Of a DNA stretch of 64,000 bases, positions 1-62,869 are shown one piece after another. This DNA is from Candidatus Thorarchaeota archaeon (GTDB taxonomy: Archaea; Asgardarchaeota; Thorarchaeia; Thorarchaeales; Thorarchaeaceae): the NCBI GenBank assembly GCA_016933575.1, contig JAFGAR010000151.1, positions 96,001-160,000 of the forward strand, given 5' to 3'. The notes under the pieces are model-generated. The model was not told the origin of the DNA. It did not search any database and saw only the letters and a list, made by a program, of their open reading frames with translations. The position numbers and the translations under genes are program-made. How positions within the stretch are numbered: position 1 is the stretch's first letter; each line of letters opens with the position of its first letter.

Positions 1-438
1 GCAGTAAGGGAGTCCGATTTACGTACTCGTCTACGAACCTTTCCTCGAGACGCACAATCTTGGTATTCACTTGGAGCTTATTTACGATTAGTTGGACGAT
101 TTAATGAAGCTGAGGATGTACTGCGGAGGGCAATCTCTCTCAATCCTGGACCCTCTCATTTTTGGGAAGAACTTGCTCGTACTCTTATGGATCTAGGTAG
201 GATTGATGAAGCCTACCAAATATACGATAGTTCAACACGAGGTAGATCATCCATCACAAAGGAGATTCAGGAGTTGAAACAGATGGAATCAAGTAGAACT
301 CACGATATTGATGACACGTCTCCCTGTATCTCATGCAAAGATTATACCTACTATGGCTGCTCGAAAGGTGGGACTTGTGATGCTATTATTCGATGGCGGT
401 CCCGAGCTCAGCACTTATCAATCCAGAATAGAACCTAA
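1..438 (+). CDS. TPR-repeat protein with C-terminal Cys cluster (5' truncated by window)
   Basis: Frame +1 is open from base 1: AVRESDLRTRLRTFPRDAQSWYSLGAYLRLVGRFNEAEDVLRRAISLNPGPSHFWEELARTLMDLGRIDEA, a TPR consensus; C-terminal CISC-x7-C-x5-C. Confidence 0.75.
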   Translation, partial: AVRESDLRTRLRTFPRDAQSWYSLGAYLRLVGRFNEAEDVLRRAISLNPGPSHFWEELARTLMDLGRIDEAYQIYDSSTRGRSSITKEIQELKQMESSRTHDIDDTSPCISCKDYTYYGCSKGGTCDAIIRWRSRAQHLSIQNRT

Positions 439-43686: not shown

Positions 43687-44112
43687 TTACCATTCCTGGC
43701 CAATCTCAAGAATCTCGAATTCACTCTCATAGAGACCTGGAATATTATTTATCGTTCTTCTGATATCGGGCTCTTTAGTTCTAATATTATCCGCAGAGAA
43801 GTACACCTCATAGATGCATCGATTTTCTTCAAAACAGAATCCTGTAGTGAAGAGCACTTTCAGATCATGATGTTTAAAGAGCTGTGTCATTGTTTGCATG
43901 AGTGCAGGATTGACCTTTTCAACCTCAAGTCTAACACGGGCTCCACCTTCTTTCATCATGGGAATAAGCCTAATCTCGCCTGATCTCTCGAAGAAGATCA
44001 CCATGGCGGCTTTCATATCCTTGAGAGCTTCATTTTGGAAGAAATCCTCAGGAAGCTTGATCTCTCTCTTCCGGTGAACGTCTGCAATCATTCCCTTTGT
44101 CAGTCCGGCCAC
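43687..44112 (-). CDS. AbrB-like N-terminus plus ACT-like domain protein
   Basis: IADVHRKREIKLPEDF resembles AbrB/MazE; C-terminal half has an ACT-like beta-alpha-beta-beta-alpha-beta pattern with TGFC...CIYEVY. Confidence 0.6.
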   Translation of the reverse strand: MAGLTKGMIADVHRKREIKLPEDFFQNEALKDMKAAMVIFFERSGEIRLIPMMKEGGARVRLEVEKVNPALMQTMTQLFKHHDLKVLFTTGFCFEENRCIYEVYFSADNIRTKEPDIRRTINNIPGLYESEFEILEIGQEW

Positions 44113-44294: not shown

Positions 44295-44417
44295 ATGGCA
44301 AAAGAAGGAGCTATCTATGTATGTGATATCTGTCAACAAGTTATTGAAGTTAAGAAATCTGGTGTTGGTACGCTAGTGTGTTGTGGAAAGCCAATGCGTC
44401 TCTACGAAGATGACTAA
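44295..44417 (+). CDS. Stand-alone desulforedoxin (FeS4 iron-binding domain), 40 aa; absent from the ORF track
   Basis: MAKEGAIYVCDICQQVIEVKKSGVGTLVCCGKPMRLYEDD: Y.CxxC...EV...G.G.L.CCG.PM; AGGAG SD upstream. Confidence 0.92.
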   Translation: MAKEGAIYVCDICQQVIEVKKSGVGTLVCCGKPMRLYEDD

Positions 44418-44471
44418 ATCAGCCACTGACTTCCACATCTGTGCAAGTGTACCTTCTCATTAAGAACACTT

Positions 44472-44485
44472 GATAATGTTTATAT
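44472..44485 (+). promoter_or_regulatory. Putative TATA box of rpo5 copy A
   Basis: GATAATGTTTATAT ends 44 nt before ATG 44529; near-identical to the motif before copy B. Confidence 0.6.
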
Positions 44486-44528
44486 TCTTTCCAAGTTGGC
44501 GAAGCAAAGTTCCCAGGGGTGTTTTTCC

Positions 44529-45086
44529 ATGATTGAACTGCCTAACACAGTCGTGAAAACCAGAGGTCTTCTCAATCTCCGTTCTTACAAGACTGATCAG
44601 CTACTAGAGTACGAAGATAAGTATGTCATGTACCCGATCAAAGAAGTTGGCGGAGTACGTTCAAAATATGTAGTCTGGATTCTCAAAGAACCTAAGGTCG
44701 TCGGAATTGCTTTTGTCAAAGATATAGCTCGTAAAATGGAAGAAGAGGAAGCCCAGAGGGGACTACTTGTTGGTGGGATTCGCTTTACTCCAGCAGCTAA
44801 GAAGGAGGCCGCTTCAGCTCGAGTGGAACTGATTGAGGGTGGGTATGCATCATTCGATCTCTTTCAACATGAACTAGTGCCCCCACACATGATTGCATCA
44901 GACGATGAAGTAAAACTAGTTCTTAACCATTTTAAGATTAGCAAGACTCAACTTCCACGAATAAGTACCGATGACCCGGCAGTTCGAGTTCTAGGTGCCG
45001 TTTCTGGTCAGGTACTTCGAATTGAACGCGAGAGTGAGACCTCCGGCAAGTCTTACTACTATAGACTGGTTGCTCGTGGTAGTTAG
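44529..45086 (+). CDS. rpo5: RNA polymerase subunit Rpo5/RPB5, full-length two-domain form, copy A
   Basis: C-terminal HELVPPH..., QLPRI..DDP....GA..GQV.RI.R.SETSG..YYYRLV; N-terminal jaw-like domain (L.LR.Y, VG...VK....M......GLLV....TP.AKK). Confidence 0.9.
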   Translation: MIELPNTVVKTRGLLNLRSYKTDQLLEYEDKYVMYPIKEVGGVRSKYVVWILKEPKVVGIAFVKDIARKMEEEEAQRGLLVGGIRFTPAAKKEAASARVELIEGGYASFDLFQHELVPPHMIASDDEVKLVLNHFKISKTQLPRISTDDPAVRVLGAVSGQVLRIERESETSGKSYYYRLVARGS

Positions 45087-45111
45087 TGATTCACAAAAGT
45101 AGCATCTATTA

Positions 45112-45125
45112 GACAATGTTTATAT
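45112..45125 (+). promoter_or_regulatory. Putative TATA box of rpo5 copy B
   Basis: GACAATGTTTATAT ends 43 nt before TTG 45168. Confidence 0.6.
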
Positions 45126-45167
45126 CAAACCATCCAAAATGGTTCATTGTAATGGATGTTTTTTATA

Positions 45168-45725
45168 TTGTCTGAGATTCCAAAAATTGTAGAGAAGACT
45201 CGTGCCCTTCTCGGACTTAGAGGTTTTAGCACGATTGAATTACTTGAATATGATGACAGATACGTAATGCATCCGACTAAGGATGTTGATGATCGAACAC
45301 TCAAGTACGTTGTTTGGATCCTGAAACAAGAACGTGTAGTAGGCGTTGCAGTAGTACGTGAACTCGCCAAAGAAATGGAGGAACTCGAAGCACCTCGAGG
45401 AATGCTTGTTGGTGGAGATCGTTTTACTCCTGCATCCAAGAAGTTCGCAAAATCTGCAAGAGTCGAATTGGTCGAAGGCAACTATTCCTCGTTTGATCTA
45501 TTCGGTCATGAACTTGTTCCCCCTCACATTATTGCTGAACCCACAGAGGTCGAACGCGTTTTAGACCATTATAAGATTAAGAAGACTCAGCTACCAAGAA
45601 TTCGCACATCTGATGCTGCTGCGAGAGTTTTAGGTGCTCGAGCAGGTCAGGTTGTCCGAATTCTAAGAGATAGTGATACTGCGGGTGATTCCTATTATTA
45701 TCGACTTGTAGTAGAACATAGTTGA
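45168..45725 (+). CDS. rpo5: RNA polymerase subunit Rpo5/RPB5, full-length two-domain form, copy B
   Basis: Same architecture; aligns without gaps to copy A over 185 aa (about 63% identity, counted by hand). Confidence 0.9.
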   Translation: MSEIPKIVEKTRALLGLRGFSTIELLEYDDRYVMHPTKDVDDRTLKYVVWILKQERVVGVAVVRELAKEMEELEAPRGMLVGGDRFTPASKKFAKSARVELVEGNYSSFDLFGHELVPPHIIAEPTEVERVLDHYKIKKTQLPRIRTSDAAARVLGARAGQVVRILRDSDTAGDSYYYRLVVEHS

Positions 45726-47383: not shown

Positions 47384-48061
47384 CTATGAATCCGAACTTA
47401 ATTCTGAACCAAGAATTCTAGTCAAGTTCTGTAGTGTTTCAAGTCGTTCAATTGCAAGCTCTTTCCCTCTTTCAGTAACAACACTTCTCGCAATTTTTTC
47501 TGCAAGTGGGAGAAATTCAACAAGTTTAGTATGGAACTCAAGGAGACTATTTCCTGGATAGATTCTAATCCCATTCAAAATATATTGCAGTAATCCTACT
47601 AACCCAAGTTTATGTATCTTGTCCGCTTCCCAAAGGATTTGTGCCTCGATTGGACTTAGAGGTGCTTCCAAGGTAAGTCCTACATGTTTCTTAATTACAT
47701 CACAGACCTTTCTAATAAGCAACTCTTCAAACCCATTCTTGAGGAGCCAATCTTTTGCTAGTTCCGCGCTCGCTACTCCATGGTCGCGAATTGCTACGCC
47801 GCCGAGACCTGGCTTTGCAAAATCATGGAACCAAGCGGCAAGGCTAACGACTTCTATGTCTGCATCTATCTTTGACGCAAGATGTTTTGCAAGGTTAACG
47901 ACCTGTTCTACATGGTCTCCACGATAATTATAAAGCGGAACATTCTGATTCTCAGATGCATCCTTCCATTCTTCAATAGCTGCCACGCTGGTAGTAGCTA
48001 TTACCATCTTCTTAATCTGAACCTCAATATCTGGTCTCATTTTGTGTCTAAAAGGTTTCAA
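47384..48061 (-). CDS. HD-domain phosphohydrolase
   Basis: H...V, AAWFHD.AK, H...SA, H......., EADK. Confidence 0.88.
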   Translation of the reverse strand: MKPFRHKMRPDIEVQIKKMVIATTSVAAIEEWKDASENQNVPLYNYRGDHVEQVVNLAKHLASKIDADIEVVSLAAWFHDFAKPGLGGVAIRDHGVASAELAKDWLLKNGFEELLIRKVCDVIKKHVGLTLEAPLSPIEAQILWEADKIHKLGLVGLLQYILNGIRIYPGNSLLEFHTKLVEFLPLAEKIARSVVTERGKELAIERLETLQNLTRILGSELSSDS

Positions 48062-48085
48062 GCTTTGTCGCTCTTATGAATTATC

Positions 48086-48859
48086 TTACTTTGGTCTAAT
48101 TCTAGAATACAATCGACATATGTTTTCAAGAACTATTTTTCCAATTTCTTCTTCTTCCATGTGAAGTATTGATGCTATCTCTCGTAATGCAATTGGTAGG
48201 TTTGCTGGTTCATTCAACTGTCCAATTACTGGACTAAGGACAGGACTGTCGGTTTCAATCAATAGACGATCAATTGCTACAGCTTTGACTAATTTTCTCT
48301 TTTGTGGCGATCTCACAACTGAAGTAGGTATTGAAAAATAGTAACCTAGTTCAGTTGATGCAATTCTAGCCAAATTTGATTTTCCGTCAAATGCATGCAG
48401 ATGAACCCTCTGTGCACCATTATTTCTTAATACAGCAAGTGCAGCTGCACCAGCTGACCTAGAGTGAATTTGTATTGGCAACTTCAATTCTAATGCTAAA
48501 TCTATCATCTTGACAAATACAGATTCTTGTTTCTTTCTTTCATCATGATCTCTTTCTAAATAGTGATCAAGTCCGCACTCTCCTATCGCGATAATGCTAT
48601 CTCTATGTTCTTTGATTAATGAAATCGCTTTTTCGCATTCATAATGATTGATTGGATTCAAACCCAAGGCTGTGTATATTGATGCAGATGAGCTGGCAAG
48701 CTCTAAATTTAGCGAGTATTGATCAATTCTTGTCGCTGATGTTATCATCACAATATCTCGCTCGATTGCCCTCTTTATAATTTCATTACGATTCTGATCA
48801 TATTCTAATTCGCCAAGATGGCAATGTGTATCAATCATTTTCAATTGCATCGCGCTCAT
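48086..48859 (-). CDS. tatD: TatD-family hydrolase/DNase
   Basis: IDTHCHL, IGECGLD, IHSR, HLHAF, IETDSP, NEP.N. Confidence 0.92.
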   Translation of the reverse strand: MSAMQLKMIDTHCHLGELEYDQNRNEIIKRAIERDIVMITSATRIDQYSLNLELASSSASIYTALGLNPINHYECEKAISLIKEHRDSIIAIGECGLDHYLERDHDERKKQESVFVKMIDLALELKLPIQIHSRSAGAAALAVLRNNGAQRVHLHAFDGKSNLARIASTELGYYFSIPTSVVRSPQKRKLVKAVAIDRLLIETDSPVLSPVIGQLNEPANLPIALREIASILHMEEEEIGKIVLENICRLYSRIRPK

Positions 48860-48956
48860 TTTACTGTTTAATAGATCTCATGAATTTTAGTACTCACTAG
48901 TTTTCTTGGACTTCGTGGGAAAAATAATTTAGGGCACAGTCAATTGTCAGATTGCT

Positions 48957-49940
48957 GTGACGAATTTGGATGTGAAATGGACAATTAGAAGATTCAATCC
49001 TTCAGATCGACCTCATTATCTAGCCTGGAGGAAGTTAGTAGCACACAGAGACAAAAATCCCGAGTTCATAGAGTGGGAATACTACTCATCACCATATGGA
49101 CCTGTAGAAACATGGGTCGCGGATGTCGATGGTAAAATTGTTGGTCAGTACTCTCTTCAACGATACGATTGCTACTACTTTGGAAAGCTTATACGAGCAT
49201 CACTATGTTTCGATGTAGCAACGCATCCTGATTACAGGAACCAAGGAATGTTCACCAAGTTGGGTTTCCATTCCTTGAAGAAGGAAGGAGAAAGTAATGT
49301 TTCTTTTACAATTGGATTTCCTTGGGTGGGGGGCATCGCAATCCCTGGACATATGAAAGTCGGATGGTCAAAGCTTGGTGAATTGGGCATTTATTCAAAG
49401 ACTGACCTTATCACAAATGAACACCAAGATATCGACGCATTTCAGATAAAACAAATCACCACATTTGATGATCGATTCGATGAACTAGCAGAAACTCACA
49501 AAACCGACTTGCCTATAATGCTTAAGCGAAGTGCAGCGTATCTTAATTGGAGATACATTCAGAAACTGGGCTATGTTTATCACTGCTTTGAAATTCTGAA
49601 AGGTGAACAATTAGTTGGATATTTCATTTTGAAACTATATGTGAGTGAGAAGAGCAAGACCCTTCATATCATTGATTATATCATTCCAAAGAATCCATCT
49701 CTCTATCAAGAAGTACTTGATTTCGTCATTACTTATGCAAAGAATAATGATGTCCAGAAGGTCAACCTTGTTATCAATGAAAACCATCATTTCTTTCAAT
49801 TCCTAGAAGAATCCAATTTCAATCGTGAAGAGCGATTCTTCATACCAATAGTACATAGAAACAACGATACGATTGACAATGACCTGTTGATTGATTTCAA
49901 GAATCATTACCTAACAATGGGTGACAATGATATCTTCTGA
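48957..49940 (+). CDS. GNAT-family N-acetyltransferase (tandem fold), glycan-locus associated
   Basis: W.Y..SP.G, DVATHPDYRNQGMF, GFP, R...YLNWRY, MGD.DIF. Confidence 0.85.
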   Translation: MTNLDVKWTIRRFNPSDRPHYLAWRKLVAHRDKNPEFIEWEYYSSPYGPVETWVADVDGKIVGQYSLQRYDCYYFGKLIRASLCFDVATHPDYRNQGMFTKLGFHSLKKEGESNVSFTIGFPWVGGIAIPGHMKVGWSKLGELGIYSKTDLITNEHQDIDAFQIKQITTFDDRFDELAETHKTDLPIMLKRSAAYLNWRYIQKLGYVYHCFEILKGEQLVGYFILKLYVSEKSKTLHIIDYIIPKNPSLYQEVLDFVITYAKNNDVQKVNLVINENHHFFQFLEESNFNREERFFIPIVHRNNDTIDNDLLIDFKNHYLTMGDNDIF

Positions 49941-50006
49941 ATTCGAATCTTCATACAATAAGATAACCCTTAATTGCACATCTCGTTACAAGAGAAAACC
50001 AATTCA

Positions 50007-50678
50007 ATGAGGTTCCTCGCCTTGAAAATTCAATCGAAACATGCACTCTTCTTATCCGCTCATGCTGACGATGCAGAATTTGGCTGTGGTGGTATTATTC
50101 AGAAATTGATTGCTGCTGGGACCAAAGTCACTTCACTCGTATTCTCAATTGCAGAAGAAGCAGCAGACACAACAAAATACCCAAGAAACATTCGTAAATC
50201 TGAGTGTGAAGATGCTGCTAAAGTCTTAGGAATAGAAGACTTACGAATATTGACCTTTCCAGTAAGAACATTCCCTAGTCGAAGACAAGAGATTCTGCAG
50301 GCGATTGTTGATATCCGAAAAGAGAATGAATTCGACTTAGTTCTCACGCATTGGCCCAATGATATTCATCAAGATCATCAAATCGTTGCAATTGAATCAC
50401 TGAGAGCATTCAAAGGAGGCGAAGCGACTGTTATGAGTTACGAGGTTCCCTTGGATTGCCTAAGTTTTTCACCCAACGTTTTTGTACCTCTTACTGAAAA
50501 AGAAGTGGATCGTAAAATTGAAGCTATATGGTGTTATCAATCCGAAGTTGCACGAAGAAGCTATTTTTCAAAAGATATGATTCGTTCCGCACTTGGATAC
50601 AGAGGTCCTTTTGCACAGACAGTCTATGCGGAAGCATTTGAATTGAAGATTCTTGTTGCAAATGTTGAATCATACTGA
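50007..50678 (+). CDS. PIG-L/LmbE-family de-N-acetylase
   Basis: AHADDAE.G.GG, R..E...AA..LG, D.HQDH, YQSE, YAEAF. Confidence 0.9.
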   Translation: MRFLALKIQSKHALFLSAHADDAEFGCGGIIQKLIAAGTKVTSLVFSIAEEAADTTKYPRNIRKSECEDAAKVLGIEDLRILTFPVRTFPSRRQEILQAIVDIRKENEFDLVLTHWPNDIHQDHQIVAIESLRAFKGGEATVMSYEVPLDCLSFSPNVFVPLTEKEVDRKIEAIWCYQSEVARRSYFSKDMIRSALGYRGPFAQTVYAEAFELKILVANVESY

Positions 50679-50733
50679 GTATTTATTGTATGATTCTTAT
50701 AATTCAAAAAATAGACATATACTTGAAGATGCA

Positions 50734-51972
50734 TCACGAATCGACAACAGTTTTCAAGACTGATGCTAGGTCTGCAGTAAGAATCCTGCGACTGAATCGT
50801 TGACTATCCTCTGTTGAGGGACCTAGAATTTGTTCTCCCCTCTTGAACATATCAAGGAACTCTATGATTTTCGTTGCACCTTCTTCTGGTTTTAAGCCAT
50901 TGACTGAAGTTCCAAGACCGTTTCTAGTAATGAAATCACCAAACACCTCAGGATTGTCAAAGCTTAGTGTGGGGTGACCAGATGCGGCATATTCGAATAT
51001 CTTTGCTGGAAATGATCTACTTACCATACCCCCAAATTGCACTAAAACATGACATTGATGAATGAAGGATAGTGCTTCAAAATGAGGAACAAATCCCCGA
51101 ATAGAAATCAAATCATCAACATTCATCCTCCTTGCTTCATTCTTCACAAATTTTGGTTGCATATTACCTACAAAAACAACATCAATCAGCTCACGCATTT
51201 CGGGTCTTTGCTTCAAGGCAAGGTTGAGAGATTCGAAAAATGGCCTTGGTGACACTTTTCCATATATGGAGCCAACATAACCAAATACAAATCTATCATT
51301 GGGTGGATTTCTCATTTCGACTGAGAAGTCGTCAGGATCATAACCATTTGTTATCATTGTGATACGTTCTTCCGATTGACCTAATTTTTCAGAAAGGTCT
51401 ACGCTATGGCTTTCATTAGTTGTAATCAGATGGTCAAAACTTGCCAGTAGTTTTCTTTCATAAAGTGAATAGAACTTCTTATGACACTTTGTTGGCCACT
51501 TCATGAACTCATTTGTTGTATAAGGATCTCTCAAATCAGCAATAATAGGAATTTTGTATATTTTATTCAAAGCTCTAGCGACTCTGAGAGCGGAGTACGG
51601 TGGAGCAGTAGCAATAATCGCTTCATAATTGCCTTCCTTTATCAGTTTCTTTCCTGTTCTTATTGCATCTGGTACCCAATCATATTGCGCATCAAGGAAT
51701 GAGTAAAGCAGTGATTGTCTTCTAAGAGGTCCTTTGGCAATTCTCCCGAGTGTACTAAAAATTGGTAGTCGATAGCTTCTCGCAATTTTCTGTCCTCTGG
51801 GTATTGACGCAAGCATTGATAGATCATTGGGATAATGTCCATCATTTTTCACAGATAATACACTTGATCTCCACCCGTATTCGGGTAGGTATTTAGAAAA
51901 TTGGAGTGGTCTGACAGAGCCAACACTACCTAATGGTGGGTAGAAGTATGCAATGAATAATACTTCTCTCAT
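50734..51972 (-). CDS. Glycosyltransferase family 4
   Basis: AYFYPP.G..G..R, ATAPPY, DLRDP, ITNGYD, YVGS.Y, PAKIFEY..SG.P. Confidence 0.9.
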   Translation of the reverse strand: MREVLFIAYFYPPLGSVGSVRPLQFSKYLPEYGWRSSVLSVKNDGHYPNDLSMLASIPRGQKIARSYRLPIFSTLGRIAKGPLRRQSLLYSFLDAQYDWVPDAIRTGKKLIKEGNYEAIIATAPPYSALRVARALNKIYKIPIIADLRDPYTTNEFMKWPTKCHKKFYSLYERKLLASFDHLITTNESHSVDLSEKLGQSEERITMITNGYDPDDFSVEMRNPPNDRFVFGYVGSIYGKVSPRPFFESLNLALKQRPEMRELIDVVFVGNMQPKFVKNEARRMNVDDLISIRGFVPHFEALSFIHQCHVLVQFGGMVSRSFPAKIFEYAASGHPTLSFDNPEVFGDFITRNGLGTSVNGLKPEEGATKIIEFLDMFKRGEQILGPSTEDSQRFSRRILTADLASVLKTVVDS

Positions 51973-52375
51973 TTCCTTTTCACACACTCGTCTTTTTTTA
52001 CTAGAGGCTATGCTTATTCTTTCCTATTGCTTGTTCCAAAATTCCCAATCTTTTCAATATAACCAATTAGAGTTTTTTAGCCTGGCAAAATGCTGTATCT
52101 CTAGTTTATCCATTTTGACCCTATTGATAGCTTGGGGTCGTATTACTCCAATGGCTAAGATTCAATTCAGGAGAGCATGTAGTAGGAGATAATGAAGGAA
52201 AATCCAAAGAATGAGATAAAGGTTATTACTTCAAAACAGATGATAGACACAAATCTGTAGATATATGACTTCCAATAGTTCCCAAGCTACCGTAGAATAG
52301 ATCCTTTTTCAATTGATGAGAATTGAAACGTATCGTCAGAAGGAGATATATGACCGAGAGGCTATCGAATAAATC

Positions 52376-52903
52376 ATGACGAATAATCAGGGTGTAAGGA
52401 TAATTAAAACGAAATTCAAAGAGGCTGTGCTAATTGAACCTGTTGTTCATGATGATTACAGAGGTTACTTCAAAGAAACATTCAGAAAGAATTTGTACCA
52501 CGAATTAGGGATTGACACAGAATTTGTACAAGACAATGTTTCTTGGTCATATAGAAACGTCATAAGAGGAATGCATTTTGATTTTAATGTCGCGAAGCTT
52601 GTTCAAGTAGTACAGGGACGAACATACCATGTTATAGCGGATATGCGCGAAAGCTCGGAAACCTACAAAGAATGGCAATCCTTCATATTATCAGATTCAA
52701 ATCATCGTCAATTGTTTGTACCTGCAGGCTTTGCAAATGGCTTTCTTGTTCTAAGCGATACAGCCTTGGTTCACTATAAACAAGGGACATATTGGAACTC
52801 AGAAACCGATCAAGGATTTCCATGGGATGATCCTTCAATAGGTATCAAATGGCCGATTGAGAATCCAATCCTCTCAGAAAAAGATGGTATGAAGTTCAGG
52901 TGA
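52376..52903 (+). CDS. rmlC: dTDP-4-dehydrorhamnose 3,5-epimerase
   Basis: D.RGYF.E, FVQDN.S.S..NV.RGMH, KLV..V.G, VPAGFA, WDDP.IGI.WP, LSEKD. Confidence 0.95.
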   Translation: MTNNQGVRIIKTKFKEAVLIEPVVHDDYRGYFKETFRKNLYHELGIDTEFVQDNVSWSYRNVIRGMHFDFNVAKLVQVVQGRTYHVIADMRESSETYKEWQSFILSDSNHRQLFVPAGFANGFLVLSDTALVHYKQGTYWNSETDQGFPWDDPSIGIKWPIENPILSEKDGMKFR

Positions 52904-53057
52904 ACTTCATCGAATAGGGTGCTATCAACACACAGAGATTCCGTTTGACCTGAATTTCAGATGTCTTCTCATCAATGGAACCTATGTTTTTAAAAGGTAA
53001 TATATTCGAGAATCCACATTGTTCAGTATACTGGATACTTATGGTGTGAATCATCAT

Positions 53058-53786
53058 ATGACAACAATCGTATCAGGTGGATCAGGCAATCTAGCAAAAG
53101 TTCTCAAGGAATCTCATCCTGAGTATTTGTATCTTTCACGAAAAGAGATGGATGTTACAGATCGAGAAACTGTCATGAGTGTCTTCGATAGAGAACATCC
53201 CACAATGTGTATACATCTTGCCGCGAACACAGATGTCGCTGGATGCGAAACAAATCACGATTTAGCATATTCAACCAATTCAATTGGCTGTAGGAACATC
53301 GCTGATGCCTGTATCAAGTATGATACATATGTAATCTATACATCTACAGATTATGTATTCGATGGCGAAAAAGGACTGTATAAAGAGGAAGATCCTCCAA
53401 GTCCGATTAACTACTATGGTCTAACGAAGCTTCTAGGAGAATTTGAAATACGTCATGTTCCCCGGCATCTAATTATAAGAGGCACTATGAAACAGGATAC
53501 AGGTTGGAGACATCCTCGTGTTCCAGACGATATTTTCCAAAGTCTTTTACATTATTCCCAATATAGTTGGATTTTATTTCAATTGATAAAACTGAATCAA
53601 ACTGGTATTATCCATGTTGGTTATGACCGATACAATCTTTATGAATATGCAAAGTCAAGACGTCAGGATGTTGAAGCAATTAAAAGGAGTGACATCAAAT
53701 CGGTGCGTCTACCTGGCGATTGCTCGTTGGACATAACGAAATTAAAATCAATCTTGAATTTGGAGTTAATGCCAAAACCACAATAA
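53058..53786 (+). CDS. rmlD: dTDP-4-dehydrorhamnose reductase-like SDR
   Basis: GGSGNL, HLAANTDV..CE, STDYVFDG, P.NYYGLTK. Confidence 0.88.
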   Translation: MTTIVSGGSGNLAKVLKESHPEYLYLSRKEMDVTDRETVMSVFDREHPTMCIHLAANTDVAGCETNHDLAYSTNSIGCRNIADACIKYDTYVIYTSTDYVFDGEKGLYKEEDPPSPINYYGLTKLLGEFEIRHVPRHLIIRGTMKQDTGWRHPRVPDDIFQSLLHYSQYSWILFQLIKLNQTGIIHVGYDRYNLYEYAKSRRQDVEAIKRSDIKSVRLPGDCSLDITKLKSILNLELMPKPQ

Positions 53787-53815
53787 AACAATATCATAGT
53801 CAGGTGTATGAAAGA

Positions 53816-54763
53816 ATGGTCATTCTAGTAACAGGTGCATGTGGATATCTCGGTTCAGAATTAATCCGGGAATTACCACGAGTCAAGGAGTTCGAAGGTG
53901 AAACTATTCGAATCATGGATAACATGTTTCGAGATCGTTTTGTTTCTTTGTTTGATTTGCCCTCTGGGCGTAGATACGAGATGGTTCATGGAGATGTTCG
54001 CGACGAGGAAAAAGTGCGAATCGCAATGAAGGATGTAACGCATGTCTTCTCGCTCTCTGATATAACCAATGCACCATTATCTTTTGAAAGAAAAGACTTG
54101 ACATTTGAAACCAACTATGAAGGCGCACTGAAAGTGTACACGCAAGCTTCGAATTCAGGAGTTGAACGATTTATCTACACATCAACAGCCTCGGTATATG
54201 GCCTGACAAAAGATATTGTAGATGAAACCTTTGATTGTAACCCCAAGAGTCCATATGGAGAATATAAGCTCAAAGCTGAGAAAGAGATGCAAAAACGTTC
54301 ACGCGAGAATGGTTTTAGTTGGACTGCTCTTAGATTAGGTACTGTCGTGGGACAAACAATTGGAATGAGATTTGATACGGTAATCGATAAGTTCACATTC
54401 TACGCATCAATCGGGCACAGCCTAACCGTATGGGAAACAGCTTTGCAGGAAGCTCGACCATATGTTGAAGTTCGCGATGTTACGCGATCTTACATCTTCT
54501 CGATGAATAATAACAAAATGGACTATGAAGTCTATAATGTTGTAGCTGAAAATCTCAATATGCATCAAGTCATTGAACGGATCAAGAAATATTTCCCCAA
54601 TGTTGATGTGAAAATCTCACCAGCTCCTGATCTGAATCAAGCTAGCTATGTATTATCCTCTGATAAAATCAAGAAAGTCGGTTTTAAGTTTAATTACACG
54701 ATTGATGATGGAATCAATAAACTTGCTTCAAAGTTCTCAGGTCTGAGTGAATTCAAGCAGTAG
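53816..54763 (+). CDS. NAD-dependent sugar epimerase/dehydratase (extended SDR)
   Basis: LVTGACGYLGS, STASVYG, PYGEYK, LR.GTV.G...MRFD. Confidence 0.9.
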   Translation: MVILVTGACGYLGSELIRELPRVKEFEGETIRIMDNMFRDRFVSLFDLPSGRRYEMVHGDVRDEEKVRIAMKDVTHVFSLSDITNAPLSFERKDLTFETNYEGALKVYTQASNSGVERFIYTSTASVYGLTKDIVDETFDCNPKSPYGEYKLKAEKEMQKRSRENGFSWTALRLGTVVGQTIGMRFDTVIDKFTFYASIGHSLTVWETALQEARPYVEVRDVTRSYIFSMNNNKMDYEVYNVVAENLNMHQVIERIKKYFPNVDVKISPAPDLNQASYVLSSDKIKKVGFKFNYTIDDGINKLASKFSGLSEFKQ

Positions 54764-54773
54764 TTCTTTCACC

Positions 54774-55502
54774 TCAACCCTTTCGAGCGAGAAAATTTGC
54801 AGCTCTAAGTAAGGTAGGAAATGTTCCTGTATCTGACCAGAAACCTTTGAGTTTATGTGCTCTACACTGGTTTCTTTGAATATAGTAGTTATTAACATCT
54901 GTGATTTCTAGTTCATTGCGCCACGAATAACCTATGTTCTCTTCGACCCATCCAATTGCATCATAAATATTGCTAGGGTAGAAATAGAGCCCCGTTACGA
55001 TATAATTGGATTTGGGTTTCTTGGGTTTTTCTTCAATTGAAATAACTGAGCCATTAGCATCAAGTTCTGCTACACCAAATCTCTCTGGTTGGTCATTTTC
55101 TGTTAGAAAGAGATTGCACATATCAGGATTTTTTTGGAAATCTTCCACATATTTCTTTATATTATCTTCAAAGATGTTGTCACCAAGAATTACCACAATA
55201 GGTTCTCCATTAGCAAATCTCTTGGTATATTTCAGTGCCTGAGCGATTCCACCCGGTTTATCTTGGTGAACATATGATAAAGTTAGACCAAAATCAGAAC
55301 CACTCCCACAAATCTTTACTATATCTCCTACTCCATTTCCTCCAATTACCATCTGAATATCTTGAATTCCTGCTTCTGCTAATGTATTGATAGGATTGAA
55401 AATCATAGGTCTGTCATAAACTGGCAACAAATGCTTGTTGGTTACTCTCGTGAGTGGATCCAAACGAGAACCAGATCCCCCTGCAAGTATTATCCCTTTC
55501 AT
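54774..55502 (-). CDS. rmlA: Glucose-1-phosphate thymidylyltransferase (short form)
   Basis: MKGIILAGGSGSRL.PLT...NKHLLPVYD.PMI, ILGDNIF, EEKP, RNELEITD, WSDTGT. Confidence 0.93.
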   Translation of the reverse strand: MKGIILAGGSGSRLDPLTRVTNKHLLPVYDRPMIFNPINTLAEAGIQDIQMVIGGNGVGDIVKICGSGSDFGLTLSYVHQDKPGGIAQALKYTKRFANGEPIVVILGDNIFEDNIKKYVEDFQKNPDMCNLFLTENDQPERFGVAELDANGSVISIEEKPKKPKSNYIVTGLYFYPSNIYDAIGWVEENIGYSWRNELEITDVNNYYIQRNQCRAHKLKGFWSDTGTFPTLLRAANFLARKG

Positions 55503-55607
55503 CGTAAAACTCTCCTTAAATAGCTGAACGAATTTAGTTCTCTTCTTAAAATTTGCCATCTTACTTCTTTGAATAATAAAGCTAAAAACAAATCATATAC
55601 CAATTCA

Positions 55608-56696
55608 TTATTGTAGATTGTTCATATCCTTCAGATCCTTGATGAGTTGCGCTGCAATCACATTCGGTATTGCAAACTTCCTTACCTTTTCTATTGGATT
55701 TAAACATCTTTTTAGATCCGCAAGATTTTCAATTGTGTACATAATTTTCTCTGCAAGATCTTTTGAGTCTGCAAACTTGCATCCAATATAATCCATTCCT
55801 TCTTCAAATAACTCATCCATTGCGATTGATTTTCCAGATATGAAAATCTTGTTCATTCCCGCATAATCATACACTTTGTTTGGTATCACGTTTCGAGCTT
55901 TTATTGACTCCCCAAAGATCCCAAGGCAGATGTCTGCTCGTTTCATTAGACTCACTAGTTCATTGTATGGGGAATAGGGATACAGGATTATCGACTCTCC
56001 TAAATCATAGGTTTCGATCATCTCTTTGCACTTTTTCTCCTCTTGCCCAGAACCAATCAGAATGAATTTGAAGGAGTACTTGTTCTCTCTTAAAATATCC
56101 AATGCTTCGATTATGTAAGGAATGCCTTGTAATGGAATATAAGTTCCATAGAAATATATCACAACTCCATCAAACTCAAGTGGATTCTCAATGATGCTTT
56201 CTTGTGCTTCTAAGTCAACTCCAACAAAGACTCGAATTATTTTTTCACTCTTCAAACCAAAGCGATGTATAAAATATTCACCATGAATATTTGTATCAAT
56301 CATTACTACATCCGAAATTGCACAAGTAATTTTATCAAGTAGCCATTCATGAATTGCTCTAATTGATAATTCTGGTATGTTTTTCCTGTCTTCAACCCGT
56401 GTATTGTAATTAGAGATGTGTGCATCAAAAACTAGTGGTCTTCTTGACACCACACTTACTATTTTTGCGAAGAAAGTCATTCTCCAACCAGGATATGGTA
56501 CTATAATAAAATCGCTTCTGAAGGCGTCCCGAAAAATTCTTGGAAACCACAAAGTAAAACGGATAATTTGAAGAGCAAGCTGGCATTTAATATTCCATTC
56601 AAATATCGTATATCCAATTTGACGGAGTCCTCTCAATAGGTTTCTGGTGCGAGGATAATCTGGATAATAAGCCCCAAACCAAAGCACACTTTTCAT
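55608..56696 (-). CDS. Glycosyltransferase family 4
   Basis: YPR...L..GL, FYGTYIPLQG, DICLGIFG...KA..VIPNKVYD. Confidence 0.88.
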   Translation of the reverse strand: MKSVLWFGAYYPDYPRTRNLLRGLRQIGYTIFEWNIKCQLALQIIRFTLWFPRIFRDAFRSDFIIVPYPGWRMTFFAKIVSVVSRRPLVFDAHISNYNTRVEDRKNIPELSIRAIHEWLLDKITCAISDVVMIDTNIHGEYFIHRFGLKSEKIIRVFVGVDLEAQESIIENPLEFDGVVIYFYGTYIPLQGIPYIIEALDILRENKYSFKFILIGSGQEEKKCKEMIETYDLGESIILYPYSPYNELVSLMKRADICLGIFGESIKARNVIPNKVYDYAGMNKIFISGKSIAMDELFEEGMDYIGCKFADSKDLAEKIMYTIENLADLKRCLNPIEKVRKFAIPNVIAAQLIKDLKDMNNLQ

Positions 56697-56806
56697 GACT
56701 TGTGCAAAAATCATGTGATTGTTATAACTGTAACTAAGAAATCTGTAACTAAATGTCCTATATGGAATGAAATGGACTCCGACTACATCTCTCTGGATGA
56801 ATGTCG

Positions 56807-58498
56807 CTATTCCAGAGTTTCTTCTCTCAATTCTAAGTTGGGTTTATTTCGCATTAAAATTCTCTCTATAAGGCGAAGAAGCGGTCGCGATACCCACCAT
56901 AAGGGGGGAACCTGTTTTAGGAATTTCTTCAGATTCTCTAGGTCTTGAAAATTCATCAATCCCAAAACTAAACAGAATCCCAAGAAAACATACCAAAGTG
57001 GAATTACGAATAATAGTTTGGCAAGAGATTTTATTGTCAGATAATTCAGAAAAGGAAGGAATGAAAGTCCATTCACTACAAATTCTGCTACGAAGTAAAC
57101 GCCGATCATGAGAGCTCCGAATAATATACACATCAACAGAGCTCTAGCTAAGTATGAACTTCTAACGTTAATTTTCAATGTTTTCCGACAGTACAAATGA
57201 TAAGTAATGAAAACCGGGAATATAGATACCCACCAGAGCGAAATTCCGAGAACACCCAACATTGGTTGCATAATAATTGTCCAGACACTCTGCAGTATCA
57301 TTGAGAAAACGCCAATACCAAGTAGCACTTTCATCTTATCAGAGGCTAGAACAAGTTGACTATATAGATTTGTTATGGGTACAATTAGGAGTATTGGCGA
57401 CATTACAATGAAGTACTGTGCTGCTGAAAACCCACCTGTGACATCTAGTGCTCTTACTCCATAAATCGCTCCTAGTAAGTTAGGACCAAAAATGAAAGCA
57501 GATAGAAACATGAATATCAATGTTGGAATGATGATTCGATATGCATCATCAAATCTATTTCGGAGACGTTGCAGCTCTCCTCGTGCTCGCATCCCCGCCA
57601 TGTTAGGAAGAAGTATTGCAAATGGGGCATTGAGGAATGTCTTCAGAGTTTCAATACTCCTTTGTGCAATTGCATATCGTGCAAGTTCGGTATCTGAACC
57701 AACAAAATCCACAATAAGAGGTGCGATGATATTACCAAAAGTTGCGAGCAATGCGAGTGCAAAAATAACAGAACTCACTTTGAATAGTGGACCTGAAATC
57801 TCTCGCCACCCCTCCACTGATATTGAAATACCCTCACTTCGCATCTCTCGTCGAAGAATTATTGCCGCTACGATGAATCCAACAACTGCAGTTCCTAAAT
57901 ACATGTACAAGATTTCTCTTATCCCAATTAAATTAGTCAAAAAAAGGAGAACCAGTATGACTCCTCTTGAACCATTGTAAAGCAAGTTGATGTAGAGGAT
58001 CCGATTCATCCTCTGTAAACCAATGAATACCGAACCAGCTATAGAGTAATACGCTGTCGGTAGCATTGCGAATAATACCAAAATCCAGAGAACTCGCAAT
58101 TCGTTTGTTACTTCTGGAGTTTCACCTACTAGAAATCCGATTTGTTCCGCAAGAAAAACAGAAACGAACGAAACTGCAAGAAATGCAATTGTTACTGCTA
58201 TCAGTGACACTCCAATCACTGAACCCATTTTCTCTCGTTTGTGAGCTGCCTCTGATACAGATTTGATAATCCCTGTTGTTAAACCTAACATGATAATGAT
58301 TGATAGAAGACTACTCCAGTACATCAGAACTTTAATGTGCGCATAATCAGAAATTGTCCAACTAATATCTATGGATCGCACGAGCAACGATGAAGATAAC
58401 AGACCTACTACCACAGCTACTACTTGAGAAACCGAGTTGACAAATACATTCTTCTGCATACTATCGCTTTTCACGATGGAATCCGAGTCATCTATCAT
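56807..58498 (-). CDS. MOP-superfamily (Wzx-like) oligosaccharide flippase
   Basis: KNVFVNS..Q N-terminus, about 14 TM, ELARYAIA motif; located within the glycan locus. Confidence 0.85.
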   Translation of the reverse strand: MIDDSDSIVKSDSMQKNVFVNSVSQVVAVVVGLLSSSLLVRSIDISWTISDYAHIKVLMYWSSLLSIIIMLGLTTGIIKSVSEAAHKREKMGSVIGVSLIAVTIAFLAVSFVSVFLAEQIGFLVGETPEVTNELRVLWILVLFAMLPTAYYSIAGSVFIGLQRMNRILYINLLYNGSRGVILVLLFLTNLIGIREILYMYLGTAVVGFIVAAIILRREMRSEGISISVEGWREISGPLFKVSSVIFALALLATFGNIIAPLIVDFVGSDTELARYAIAQRSIETLKTFLNAPFAILLPNMAGMRARGELQRLRNRFDDAYRIIIPTLIFMFLSAFIFGPNLLGAIYGVRALDVTGGFSAAQYFIVMSPILLIVPITNLYSQLVLASDKMKVLLGIGVFSMILQSVWTIIMQPMLGVLGISLWWVSIFPVFITYHLYCRKTLKINVRSSYLARALLMCILFGALMIGVYFVAEFVVNGLSFLPFLNYLTIKSLAKLLFVIPLWYVFLGFCLVLGLMNFQDLENLKKFLKQVPPLWWVSRPLLRLIERILMRNKPNLELREETLE

Positions 58499-58815
58499 TG
58501 CACTGTCACACCCATTGTAGCTGACATAAACCCTTCCTCAGTTCACTATACGTACTATGTCAAAATCCATAAGTTGCTTGAGGTTAGTGGAGAATTGTCT
58601 GGACCGTTATCTTACGTTTTTTAACTATATCCCCAGACTAATTAAAAATATCATCATGATAAGCGCTTAAGGTTCAAACTAAACAAAGTTCCTTGGAAAC
58701 TCGATTCTTGGTTATTCTATTCTCAGAGATTTTTGGGGCTATGAAATTAAATGTTGAGAAATTTCATCACCAACTATAATAAGAATAGACAAGCAAATAA
58801 AAATGGAGTATAAAG

Positions 58816-60066
58816 ATGAAGATTGTATTTGTTCAACCGCTAACAGGTTTCAAAGGGCACACTTGGGAGGCATTAAACATTGGTTATCTCTCATCGTATC
58901 TAGAGAAATATTATAGTAGCGATTTGGACATTGAATTCTATTCTGGTTTTTATGATTCTGATGAAACCATCTTACATGCGTGTGAAGATGCAGATATTAT
59001 CGGTATGAGTTGTACGTCCCCCCAGTTTAGACATGGAGTAGAACTTGCAAATCAAATAAAAAATAAAGATAATCTAATCGTCTTTGGTGGAGTACATGCC
59101 TCTGCTCTTCCCGATCTAGTGGCCCAAGAACCCTCTATTGATGTTGTTGTAGTTGGCGAGGGTGAAAAGGCAATGCTTCAAATTGTTAATGATTTTAATG
59201 AAGGGAAAAAGACACCTAGTAAATTACTCCATTTCGATTTTGTTGAAGATTTAGACACAATCCCATTCCCTGATAGAACCGTAATTAAAAACGAAAGACA
59301 TATTCAACAAGCATACAAAGATAATGGAGTTAGAATCACATCAGTTCTTACCAGCAGAGGATGTCCATTTCGATGTGCTTTTTGTTGCAGTGAAACAATC
59401 TGGCATAGAAAAACAAGAATTCGGTCAGTCGGGAATGTTTTGCAAGAGATTGAAGAACTGGTCAAAGATTGGAATATTCAATTTCTCAAATTTTCAGACG
59501 ATACGTTCACACTCAATAAGAAATGGATAGCAGAGTTCTCGCGTCGCAAAATTGAGATTGGGCTCAATTTACCATATGGAAGCAATGCTCATGTAAATAC
59601 TATTGATGAGAATATGTTGAAACATCTTGCTGATAGTAATTGTACAGAACTATGGTACGGTGTTGAAAGCGGTTCATCCAAAATATTGAAGGATATGCGT
59701 AAGAGTATTAATGTCGAGCGAATAAAGAAGGTCTTCAAACTGACTAAAGATTACGGTATTAAAACTCGCGCCTATTTCCTATTGGGAATGCCAAATGAAA
59801 CAATTGAAGACATTAGGTTGACAGAGAAGTTATGCGACGAGATTGAACCCGACGTTGTCGGATTCTCTTTACTTGCTCCATTTCCAGATAATGAATTCTA
59901 TGATTATGAAACCATGAAAGATTGGGACTGGTCAATGTTTGACGAGTACAGTAACGATTGGGTTCAAACGAAAACCTTGACAAATCAACAATTGAAAGAT
60001 GAGCAAAAGCGACTGGTGGAAAAATACCAGAGAAAAATCACGTTTAGACAGAAGCAGGAGAAATAA
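58816..60066 (+). CDS. Cobalamin-binding radical SAM protein (class B methyltransferase-like)
   Basis: B12-binding N-terminus (GGVHAS, GEGE), SRGCPFRCAFC, DDTFT, GVESGS, F.LG.P.ET. Confidence 0.92.
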   Translation: MKIVFVQPLTGFKGHTWEALNIGYLSSYLEKYYSSDLDIEFYSGFYDSDETILHACEDADIIGMSCTSPQFRHGVELANQIKNKDNLIVFGGVHASALPDLVAQEPSIDVVVVGEGEKAMLQIVNDFNEGKKTPSKLLHFDFVEDLDTIPFPDRTVIKNERHIQQAYKDNGVRITSVLTSRGCPFRCAFCCSETIWHRKTRIRSVGNVLQEIEELVKDWNIQFLKFSDDTFTLNKKWIAEFSRRKIEIGLNLPYGSNAHVNTIDENMLKHLADSNCTELWYGVESGSSKILKDMRKSINVERIKKVFKLTKDYGIKTRAYFLLGMPNETIEDIRLTEKLCDEIEPDVVGFSLLAPFPDNEFYDYETMKDWDWSMFDEYSNDWVQTKTLTNQQLKDEQKRLVEKYQRKITFRQKQEK

Positions 60067-60072
60067 CAAAAG

Positions 60073-61215
60073 ATGAAAATTCCTCTGTTCAAGATCTATT
60101 GGGATAACGAGGATATTGAAGCAGTCAGTAAAGTCATTAAAAAAGGAGCATATTGGACAACAGGTCCAATTGTTAATGAATTTGAAAGTAAGATCTCCGA
60201 ATATATCGGTTCCAAATACTGCGTCACTTTCAACTCAGGAACGTCAGCGTTGCATTCCATTCTCTTAGCTTATGGCGTTACGGTGGGGGACGAAGTCATT
60301 GTTCCTTCCTTTACGTTTATCGCAACAGCAAACGCACCACTCTTTACAGGGGCAAAGCCGATATTTGCCGATATCGAGGAGAAAACTCTCGGATTAGATC
60401 CTTTAGATGTTAAAGAAAAAATCACAAAGAAAACAAAGGCTATTATTCCTGTCCACTATGGAGGTTCACCTTGTCGTATTAATGAATTGAAAGAGATTGC
60501 TGAGGATCATAATCTGATATTGATAGAAGATGCTGCGGAATCTTTTGGTGCGATGATCGATGACAGAAAAATCGGAACCTTTGGAGACTCTACCATGTTT
60601 AGTTTCTGTCAGAATAAAATAATCACCACTGGGGACGGTGGGTGCATTACAACTAATTCAAAAGATGTCTATGAGAAATTGAAATTAATTAGATCTCATG
60701 GTAGACAAGAGACATCGAATTATTTTTCCTCAACCGAGTTTATGGATTATGTTACATTAGGATACAATTTTAGAATATCTGATATCACTGCTGCCTTAGG
60801 TGTATCTCAAATCAATAAAATTGATAAAATCATTGAACTGCGACGGAAAAACGCAAATTATCTAAATGATAGACTTTCATCAATCGATGAGATAGATCTT
60901 CTAAATCCACCAGAGGAATACTTCCACGTATATCAAATGTACACAATTAGAGTCGCAGGAGGGGCACGAACAAGGGATGAGCTGATGAGATATTTATCTG
61001 AGAAAGGTATTGGCACAAAAGTGTACTTTTATCCTGTTCATTTAACGCACTTCTATAAAACCAAATTTGGCTACAATCGCGGCGAAGTACCTCGCACTGA
61101 AGAAATATCTGATTGTGTATTGTCTTTGCCAATGTTTCCAACAATGGTCAAGGAAGAGATGGATTATATTGCCGAGACTTTGAACAACTTTTTTGAAAAG
61201 CATCCCTACGAATGA
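60073..61215 (+). CDS. DegT/DnrJ/EryC1/StrS sugar aminotransferase
   Basis: NSGTSALH, VPSFTFIAT, EDAAESFG, SF.QNKIITTGDGG, GYNFR, LSLPMFP. Confidence 0.95.
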   Translation: MKIPLFKIYWDNEDIEAVSKVIKKGAYWTTGPIVNEFESKISEYIGSKYCVTFNSGTSALHSILLAYGVTVGDEVIVPSFTFIATANAPLFTGAKPIFADIEEKTLGLDPLDVKEKITKKTKAIIPVHYGGSPCRINELKEIAEDHNLILIEDAAESFGAMIDDRKIGTFGDSTMFSFCQNKIITTGDGGCITTNSKDVYEKLKLIRSHGRQETSNYFSSTEFMDYVTLGYNFRISDITAALGVSQINKIDKIIELRRKNANYLNDRLSSIDEIDLLNPPEEYFHVYQMYTIRVAGGARTRDELMRYLSEKGIGTKVYFYPVHLTHFYKTKFGYNRGEVPRTEEISDCVLSLPMFPTMVKEEMDYIAETLNNFFEKHPYE

Positions 61216-61304
61216 TAAGTTCATCATCAGCTTCTCAAAGACGAAGGTACTTGCACTTCACAAAAAAAGCAGTATTAGTAATTTCTTCTTTATTCCAAGT
61301 TATC

Positions 61305-62747: not shown

Positions 62748-62869
62748 GTGTAATCAACTCAGGCACACTCGTGTTCGTTCTTATATACCTTTAAACTGAG
62801 CGTATTCCTCAACCATGTTTGTGAACTAAATTCTATGCCTAAAAAACCAGTGTCAATGACTCGTTTTTA

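Follow-up and report, generated by a model that had tools for sequence, protein, structure and literature searches.

A conserved tandem pair of full-length RPB5-like Rpo5 genes in Thorarchaeia, candidate alternative lower-jaw subunits of one RNA polymerase

The window analysed here is a stretch of 64,000 nucleotides from Candidatus Thorarchaeota archaeon (GenBank assembly GCA_016933575.1, contig JAFGAR010000151.1, positions 96,001 to 160,000 of the forward strand), and it carries two adjacent genes, copy A (upstream, A-type) and copy B (downstream, B-type), whose products belong to the Rpo5/RPB5 family of RNA polymerase (RNAP) subunits. In BLASTP the two proteins align without gaps, with 117 of 183 residues identical (64%, E = 2e-85), close to the 63% or so counted by hand in the original prediction, which was made from the DNA letters and translated open reading frames and had described two intact RPB5-like Rpo5 paralogues of 185 residues each. 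Both score far above the cut-off of 23.5 bits for Pfam RNA_pol_Rpb5_C (PF01191; A 90.6 bits, B 90.5 bits, E about 5e-26), the match spanning residues 109–181 of A and residues 114–185 of B when the latter is counted from an ATG at 45156, and both pass the NCBIfam RpoH equivalog NF007129 (91 and 90.4 against a cut-off of 83). The named homologues are all Thorarchaeota RpoH proteins of about 185 residues. The C-terminal of the two Pfam domains of RPB5 is thus recovered in both copies, and the N-terminal one, Rpb5_N (PF03871), in neither at E-values up to 1. Taken with the RPB5 fold described below, these matches confirm, at the level of sequence, that A and B are both intact Rpo5 paralogues of full-length, RPB5-like form.

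The N-terminal domain, in which a likeness to the jaw of eukaryotic RPB5 had been seen earlier, aligns with RPB5 in register with the C-terminal domain. In a phmmer comparison with PDB sequences, residues 48–181 of copy A align with residues 73–209 of human RPB5; with the N-terminal domain alone, the top six PDB matches are all RPB5, at E-values of only 0.05–0.15. A profile of 50 Asgard long forms, that is, Rpo5 proteins with this additional domain, matches human RPB5 at 1.8e-37 over residues 36–181 and aligns with plant NRPB5A over residues 18–182. When the AlphaFold2 model of copy A (pLDDT 87.9) was compared with known structures using Foldseek, the best 34 matches were full-length eukaryotic or viral RPB5, with template modelling (TM) scores of 0.73–0.77 over about 200 columns, and short archaeal Rpo5 chains covered the C-terminal domain only, at a root mean square deviation of 1.1–1.4 Å. 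Two jaw motifs are conserved among the aligned long forms: Arg18 of the RGY motif is invariant and is followed at positions 19–20 mostly by GY or GF, and Thr87 of the TPAA/TPAS motif is kept in at least 90% of them, with Pro next in both A and B. Copy A has the versions LRSY and TPAA, copy B LRGF and TPAS. In yeast, R26 of the DRGY motif is essential and inversion of the Arg charge is lethal (PMC1802627), and the TPSA motif of RPB5 contacts downstream DNA (PMC6690254).

Across the whole genome (3.47 Mb in 215 contigs, 85.5% complete, 6.9% contamination), Rpb5_C matches these two genes only. The one rpoB–rpoA′–rpoA″ operon lies on another contig (Rpo1′ at L095, 7794–10451), and no rpoH was found ahead of rpoB. 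A second RpoB, considered as a possible second core, was rejected as contamination: it is a 1.5-kb contig fragment, 53% identical to the RpoB of this genome and much closer to that of Thermoplasmatota (Table 1). With a single operon and the second RpoB fragment explained as contamination, the genome therefore has one catalytic core and two candidate Rpo5 subunits. Two further features of the operon may be recorded here. The stretch of about 600 bp ahead of rpoB (L095, G000 contig C16, 13824–14400) contains no convincing open reading frame (ORF), and its six-frame translations look structured-RNA-like or tRNA-like. Rpo1″ (L095, 6445–7779, minus strand) begins with a low-complexity extension of about 60 residues, rich in Lys, Ser and Thr, before Rpb1_5 (P0123, residues 1–60); this tail is variable, and alignment with relatives begins only at about residue 45–57.

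We scanned 268 Asgard genomes, each at least 85% complete, and found Rpb5_C within open frames of 180–250 residues in many families and within frames of 81–125 residues in others, including the largest family sampled. In BLAST comparisons with copy A, several of the long forms from other families align nearly full length and others from about residue 40–77 onward. The long form is common in Asgard archaea, so it is no distinguishing mark of this locus. The tandem pair, surveyed in 87 Thorarchaeia genomes (72 with a match, from 17 genera), is present in 37 of those 72 and in 5 of the 17 genera, and is thus not limited to this genome: it occurs in 20 of the 28 genomes of the home genus, labelled g1 here, in 10 genomes of g12, 4 of g16, 2 of g11 and 1 of g3. 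The copies lie about 650 bp apart on one strand and in constant order. Each of the remaining 12 genera has a single copy, and no additional short rpoH was found in these 12. In a 5.8-Mb genome from another Asgard family (G164), two long-form Rpo5 genes are present at dispersed positions and are 74% identical. These stem from an independent duplication, and duplication of Rpo5 is thus recurrent in Asgard archaea. As a separate observation, two genomes of the largest, short-form family (G230 and G260) have two Rpb5_C matches each.

The open frames of the two genes run from 44496 or 44529 to 45086 (A) and from 45156 or 45168 to 45725 (B), both on the plus strand. In copy A orthologues a GGGGTG or GAGGTG motif is kept 8–12 nt ahead of the ATG, and because of this conserved Shine-Dalgarno-like spacing the start of copy A is placed at ATG 44529 rather than at TTG 44496. 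In the downstream copies of g1 a TTG opens the frame about 9–10 nt past a conserved GGGTG; in this genome a G-to-A change within the GGGTG creates a spurious ATG at 45156. Because the orthologues open at the TTG, we place the start of copy B at TTG 45168, which gives the length of 185 residues originally proposed. The box cacTTGACAATGTTTATAT, with small variations, stands about 51–53 nt ahead of every upstream copy in five genera, the box of copy A in this window lying 44–50 nt before its start codon, and the upstream copies have an ATG start (GTG in one genome) together with a GGGGTG-like Shine-Dalgarno sequence. The downstream copies start with TTG or GTG in all five pair-bearing genera. Each is preceded by a GGGTG motif and by a TATA-like box of its own, spaced as in the upstream copies; in g1 this box is conserved as TTTGACAATGTTTATATCAAA, and related TATA-like boxes are found in g12, g16, g11 and g3. 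Since each copy has conserved signals of its own, the duplicated unit probably carried promoter, leader and coding region together. With at most one mismatch the promoter box occurs at 4 sites genome-wide, against 0 for a control pattern. Its use as a regulon marker was abandoned, as the other two sites precede nothing informative. Reads from one DNA run and two metatranscriptome runs of a single study gave zero coverage of the pair, the probable source run included, and this zero therefore carries no information on expression.

Phylogenetic trees of Rpo5 were built from 124, 48 and 59 rows, the first being a maximum-likelihood tree of long forms. In that tree the upstream, A-like copies of g1 (n = 26) form a clade with support 99/95 and the downstream, B-like copies (n = 21) a clade with support 100/99, the two being sisters (99/89). 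In g12, g16 and g11 the upstream copies and the downstream copies are likewise grouped into clades of their own, each with 100% bootstrap. A and B are thus persistent orthologous lineages, at least throughout the genus. In none of the three trees of this short gene is the backbone among genera resolved. Approximately unbiased (AU) tests did not reject genus-specific duplications (g16, p = 0.27; g11, p = 0.14; g12, p = 0.44), nor did they reject the grouping of all downstream copies in one clade (p = 0.41).

Several observations nevertheless bear on the age of the duplication. (i) Identity between copies in the same position exceeds identity across positions in 10 of 10 genus pairs, by 0.7 to 5.2 points. 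(ii) Upstream copies have Lys64 where other Asgard long forms have Arg, and downstream copies have Arg153 where those forms mostly have Lys. (iii) The single-copy genera fall into an ATG/K64 group (g2, g5, g8, g10 and g13) and a TTG-GTG/R64 group (g4, g6, g9, g14 and g15), and in a tree of concatenated RpoB, A′ and A″ both groups are interleaved with the pair-bearing genera: B-type-only g6 is sister to pair-bearing g16 (99/98), and a B-type-only clade of g9, g4 and g14 adjoins g11 (81/91). Because the order is constant, the starts are ATG versus TTG or GTG and same-position identity is in excess, we favour one old event, and a fairly likely history is that the pair arose once, near the base of the family, and that lineages then lost different copies. 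The duplication is at least as old as the genus and probably as old as the family. If there was one old event, the sister position of the A and B clades of g1 would be explained by partial gene conversion or by co-evolution with a shared partner.

On interchangeability, natural deletions in related genomes tell more than the binding model described below. Within g1, two genomes (G041 and G034) lack B, A being joined cleanly to the following gene; in two others (G030 and G052; 97% complete) A is accompanied by an unrelated membrane ORF of 152 residues; and one (G035) has only a B-type gene. These A-only and B-only genomes are the nearest relatives of the present one (RpoB 96% identical). Because such relatives keep A alone or B alone, either copy can evidently serve as the only Rpo5, as judged from gene content.

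Docking of the C-terminal domain on the largest subunit was modelled with ESMFold2 for copy B (41-row alignment) and residues 60–445 of Rpo1″, in three runs with three controls. The interface score ipSAE was 0.73 in the three runs and 0.00 in the best of the controls; the mark of 0.73 is reached by 58 of 80 solved complexes and by 2 of 110 mismatched pairs, and, as a like complex has already been solved, the score may reflect likeness. At least 53% of contacts agreed between runs, and the partner had a pLDDT of 77 or higher. The predicted interface lies entirely in the C-terminal domain and includes D153-A154-A155, the site at which the conserved DP motif reads DA in copy B. A and B share 17 of its 22 residues, and 14 do not vary in either g1 clade. 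Both proteins keep the predicted interface with Rpo1″.

Selection on the two copies was estimated from pairwise Nei-Gojobori ratios of nonsynonymous to synonymous divergence (dN/dS) in 19 closely related genome pairs, with medians of 0.11 for upstream and 0.09 for downstream copies. These estimates indicate that both copies are under strong purifying selection and that neither is decaying or under relaxed constraint. Between A and B, synonymous divergence has reached saturation in all genomes. In 143 of 171 genome pairs in g1, and in 31 of 36 in g12, dN is lower for the downstream copy, the pairs not being independent of one another, and copy B mostly retains the residues of single-copy genera and other Asgard lineages, with copy A the more variable. 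By these measures B is the conservative, slower-evolving copy, and A evolves faster and is the more derived of the two. The C-terminal domain is at least as conserved as the N-terminal domain in both copies, and between the copies of this genome the N-terminal domains are 60% and the C-terminal domains 67.5% identical.

Only three differences between A and B are fixed across g1, namely L4I and N16A in jaw helix α1 and V152A beside the DP motif. The replacement of DP by DA to which the original prediction drew attention is present in copy B of this genome. It was rejected as a defining B feature, being sporadic: it occurs in 4 of 21 g1 B orthologues, in 6 of 10 downstream-type copies of g12, in two copies outside g1 and g12, and in 0 of 35 upstream copies. 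The clusters of differences reported for residues 41–45, 61–70 and 121–130 are roughly matched by the 10-residue windows of lowest identity (61–70 and 121–130 with 4/10 each, 41–50 with 5/10), and the window 1–10, which had not been named, is equally low (4/10).

The immediate surroundings of the pair hold no other RNAP gene, as had been noted from the start; the neighbours are a desulforedoxin-like ORF, an RHH protein and a membrane protein. The desulforedoxin-like ORF, of 40 residues and below the default size of the ORF list, sits immediately ahead of copy A, where it is syntenic in related genomes; it matches the desulfoferrodoxin N-terminal domain PF06397 at E = 2e-12. A conserved protein of 141 residues, 87–92% identical in four of the relatives compared, and a multi-pass membrane protein of 254 residues, a conserved flanking gene, have no Pfam match at E = 0.01. 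Farther along the window, from about 48 kb onward, the G+C content falls from about 0.41–0.43 to about 0.37–0.39, which may reflect an island or a different gene set. Coordinates are collected in Table 1.

Table 1. Coordinates of the Rpo5 pair, its putative expression signals and other features mentioned in the text. Positions refer to the window unless another contig is given.
Feature	Position	Strand	Description
Copy A, upstream gene, A-type	44529–45086	+	185-residue long-form Rpo5/RPB5-like subunit
Copy A, N-terminal domain	residues 1–105		jaw-like, apparently inactive PD-(D/E)XK
Copy A, C-terminal domain	residues 106–185		Rpb5_C assembly domain
Copy B, downstream gene, B-type	45168–45725	+	185-residue long-form Rpo5/RPB5-like subunit; TTG start
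Promoter-like box, copy A, TTGATAATGTTTATAT	44470–44485	+	B recognition element (BRE)/TATA-like; from sequence and conservation
Shine-Dalgarno-like GGGGTG, copy A	44516–44521	+	conserved in orthologues
Promoter-like box, copy B, TAGACAATGTTTATAT	45110–45125	+	spacing to start as in copy A
Shine-Dalgarno-like GGATG, copy B	45154–45158	+	GGGTG in orthologues
Desulforedoxin-like ORF	44295–44417	+	
Conserved 141-residue protein	43687–44112	−	
Membrane protein, 254 residues	45729–46493	−	
Region of lower G+C	~48000–64000		
Contaminant RpoB fragment	G000 contig C17 (L134 1–1537)		85–96% identity to Thermoplasmatota RpoB
Dispersed Rpo5 copies of G164	contig C1, ~150104 and 254160 (L085, L096)		~104 kb apart

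Two of the alternatives to be weighed concern what the genes are. One takes the N-terminal domain for a catalytically active Mrr-type restriction nuclease that has been fused to RpoH and has no relation to the RPB5 jaw. Such a reading could draw on the Pfam family Mrr_cat (PF04471), which both copies match above its cut-off (26.3 and 33.2 bits against 21) where Rpb5_N finds nothing, but the match is restricted to positions 48–108 of the 115 in the hidden Markov model (HMM), and both copies also show a weak match to an inactive-restriction-endonuclease family. In a manual register against the Mrr_cat consensus, anchored on K53, the acid position of the (D/E/Q)xK motif is presumably occupied by Ile51 (W-I-L-K), and the strand ahead of it would have no conserved Asp. 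Other Asgard long forms have P, E, D, F, G, N or L in place of K53 itself, and the top PDB matches, in both sequence and fold, are RPB5, in register across both domains. Because the N-terminal domain of RPB5 is itself classed in the PD-(D/E)XK superfamily (PMC3424549), a match to Mrr_cat and homology to RPB5 are compatible. Sequence and model together support common ancestry of the domain with the RPB5 jaw and speak against an active Mrr nuclease, and we regard the nuclease alternative as highly improbable. There is next to no chance that the duplication happened recently, or that the pair was produced by misassembly or strain collapse in this metagenome-assembled genome: the completeness and contamination values of the assembly would leave room for such an error, yet the same ordered pair recurs in 37 genomes, synonymous sites between A and B are saturated, A and B fall into separate orthologous clades, and the flanking genes are syntenic in relatives.

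The remaining alternatives concern what the two proteins do. We favour the reading, with a probability of roughly 0.7, that both are working Rpo5 copies, forming two isoforms of one polymerase that differ only in the lower jaw. Two isoforms are likely because there is one Rpo5 site, one catalytic core and two proteins, and the reading builds on the homology, fold, copy number, pair conservation, purifying selection and conserved interface residues shown above. Each protein has the long RPB5-like form, in which a dead PD-(D/E)XK jaw domain precedes the C-terminal domain found in all Rpo5 proteins, the part that docks on the largest subunit. The copies would be expressed separately, A from an ATG start and B from a weaker TTG start, would both assemble into polymerase and would compete for the one Rpo5 position on the one core. 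Most likely the pair would be kept through partition of expression or dosage together with modest differences in jaw surface, and not by division into polymerases with separate gene sets. Some points weigh against this reading. The complex prediction covers copy B only and concerns a textbook pair; the P-to-A change at residue 154 of copy B falls inside the predicted interface; the three fixed A/B differences are all conservative changes; and no consistent A/B difference in the net charge of the domains was found. Retention in five genera at a dN/dS of about 0.1 also speaks against pure redundancy and makes some functional difference likely. The recurrence of the residue-154 change in other downstream copies, and in two copies outside g1 and g12, suggests that it is tolerated.

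One such difference would be true specialisation, with an A-polymerase and a B-polymerase serving different gene sets or conditions, the alternative jaws recruiting different factors or handling downstream DNA or chromatin differently, as a prokaryotic counterpart of NRPE5 or RPB5z. It would account for the long retention of both copies under strong purifying selection in five genera, the separate conserved promoter-like boxes and different start codons, and the type-specific derived residues (K64 in A-type, R153 in B-type, as against R64 and K153 elsewhere in Asgard); moreover, jaw helix α1, which is critical in yeast (PMC1802627), contains two of the three fixed positions. However, the copies are reciprocally lost within the genus and across genera, so that either suffices, only three positions are fixed and all of them conservatively, there is a single catalytic core, neither copy is linked to a paralogue-specific partner gene, and no consistent charge or surface signature sets the types apart. 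We consider specialisation of this kind unlikely. The original prediction had proposed exchangeable jaw subunits and, with them, a heterogeneity resembling eukaryotic polymerase specialisation. Exchangeability is a reasonable inference; the specialisation is disfavoured by the single core, the reciprocal losses, the paucity of fixed differences and the sporadic occurrence of DA. Of the outcomes named beforehand as counting against that prediction (a duplication confined to this genome with relaxed selection on one copy, an active nuclease domain, or polymerase binding by one copy only), none is borne out, the last as judged from the predicted interface. The versatility of the PD-(D/E)XK fold, and the faster and more derived upstream copy, might instead suggest that one protein acts outside the polymerase, as a free DNA- or factor-binding jaw protein or as an assembly or regulatory decoy, with the other as the structural subunit. 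This is improbable, given that all invariant residues of the predicted Rpo1″ interface are kept in both, that conservation of the C-terminal domain equals or exceeds that of the N-terminal domain in both, and that some genomes rely on an A-type gene alone for Rpo5 and others on a B-type gene.

Reviews credit archaea with a single RNA polymerase in which every small subunit is present once, and treat the RPB5 jaw domain as having been added in eukaryotes (PMC6690254, PMC3906176, PMC1802627), archaeal Rpo5 being described as lacking the N-terminal domain (PMC6690254, PMC3906176). The Asgard long form questions the view of the jaw domain as a eukaryotic addition. Our literature search, whose reach excluded most subscription journals and supplementary tables, found no report of a long-form or duplicated Rpo5 in Asgard archaea. 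The subunit family is already known, and the new element is the conserved paralogue pair maintained by selection. It makes polymerase heterogeneity in a close relative of eukaryotes testable, with two proteins, two promoters and natural A-only and B-only genomes. A stronger claim, which we hold as a tentative possibility, is that the two have been alternative lower-jaw subunits since before the radiation of the main family, giving two functionally distinct isoforms of one RNA polymerase. If so, this would be the first archaeal RNAP subunit heterogeneity by paralogy and a living precedent for a subunit-swapping route of eukaryotic polymerase diversification. A difference in function between the isoforms would bear on the origin of the multiple eukaryotic polymerases; if there is none, the pair would be a clean case of a core-machinery duplicate retained over the long term by expression partition.

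Among the closest known systems, eukaryotic RPB5/RPABC1 (PF03871 + PF01191; PDB entries 1dzf, 5xog_E, 8uhd_E and 7vba_E) has the same two domains in the same arrangement (TM scores of 0.73–0.77), a contiguous profile alignment across both domains, an inactive PD-(D/E)XK fold, the RGY motif at the end of helix α1, the TP(A/S)A motif and, as predicted here, docking of the C-terminal domain on the largest subunit. The present copies differ from it in being about 25 residues shorter (185 versus 210–215 residues), at 24–33% identity, in escaping Pfam Rpb5_N at E-values up to 1, and in serving one polymerase rather than three from two tandem genes. The canonical archaeal Rpo5/RpoH of 75–85 residues (PDB entries 8cro_H, 4qiw_H and 7ok0_H) is orthologous to their C-terminal 80 residues, whereas the genes described here add a jaw domain of 105 residues, are duplicated and lie away from the head of the rpoB–rpoA operon. 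Other Asgard long-form Rpo5 proteins have the same architecture but are single-copy, the ordered pair being found here and in four other genera of Thorarchaeia. Mrr-type restriction endonucleases (PF04471) belong to the same fold superfamily and their HMM matches above its cut-off, but the catalytic residues are presumably absent here, as judged by the manual register, and the domain is fused to an RNAP assembly domain. Further parallels are plant NRPE5 and NRPD5 (PDB entries 8hyj_E and 8hil_E) and trypanosomatid RPB5z (PMC6690254), which are likewise selected paralogues of the fifth subunit at the same jaw position. Those paralogues go with distinct cores or polymerases, whereas in these Thorarchaeia there is one core, either copy can apparently stand alone and the divergence between the two is small.

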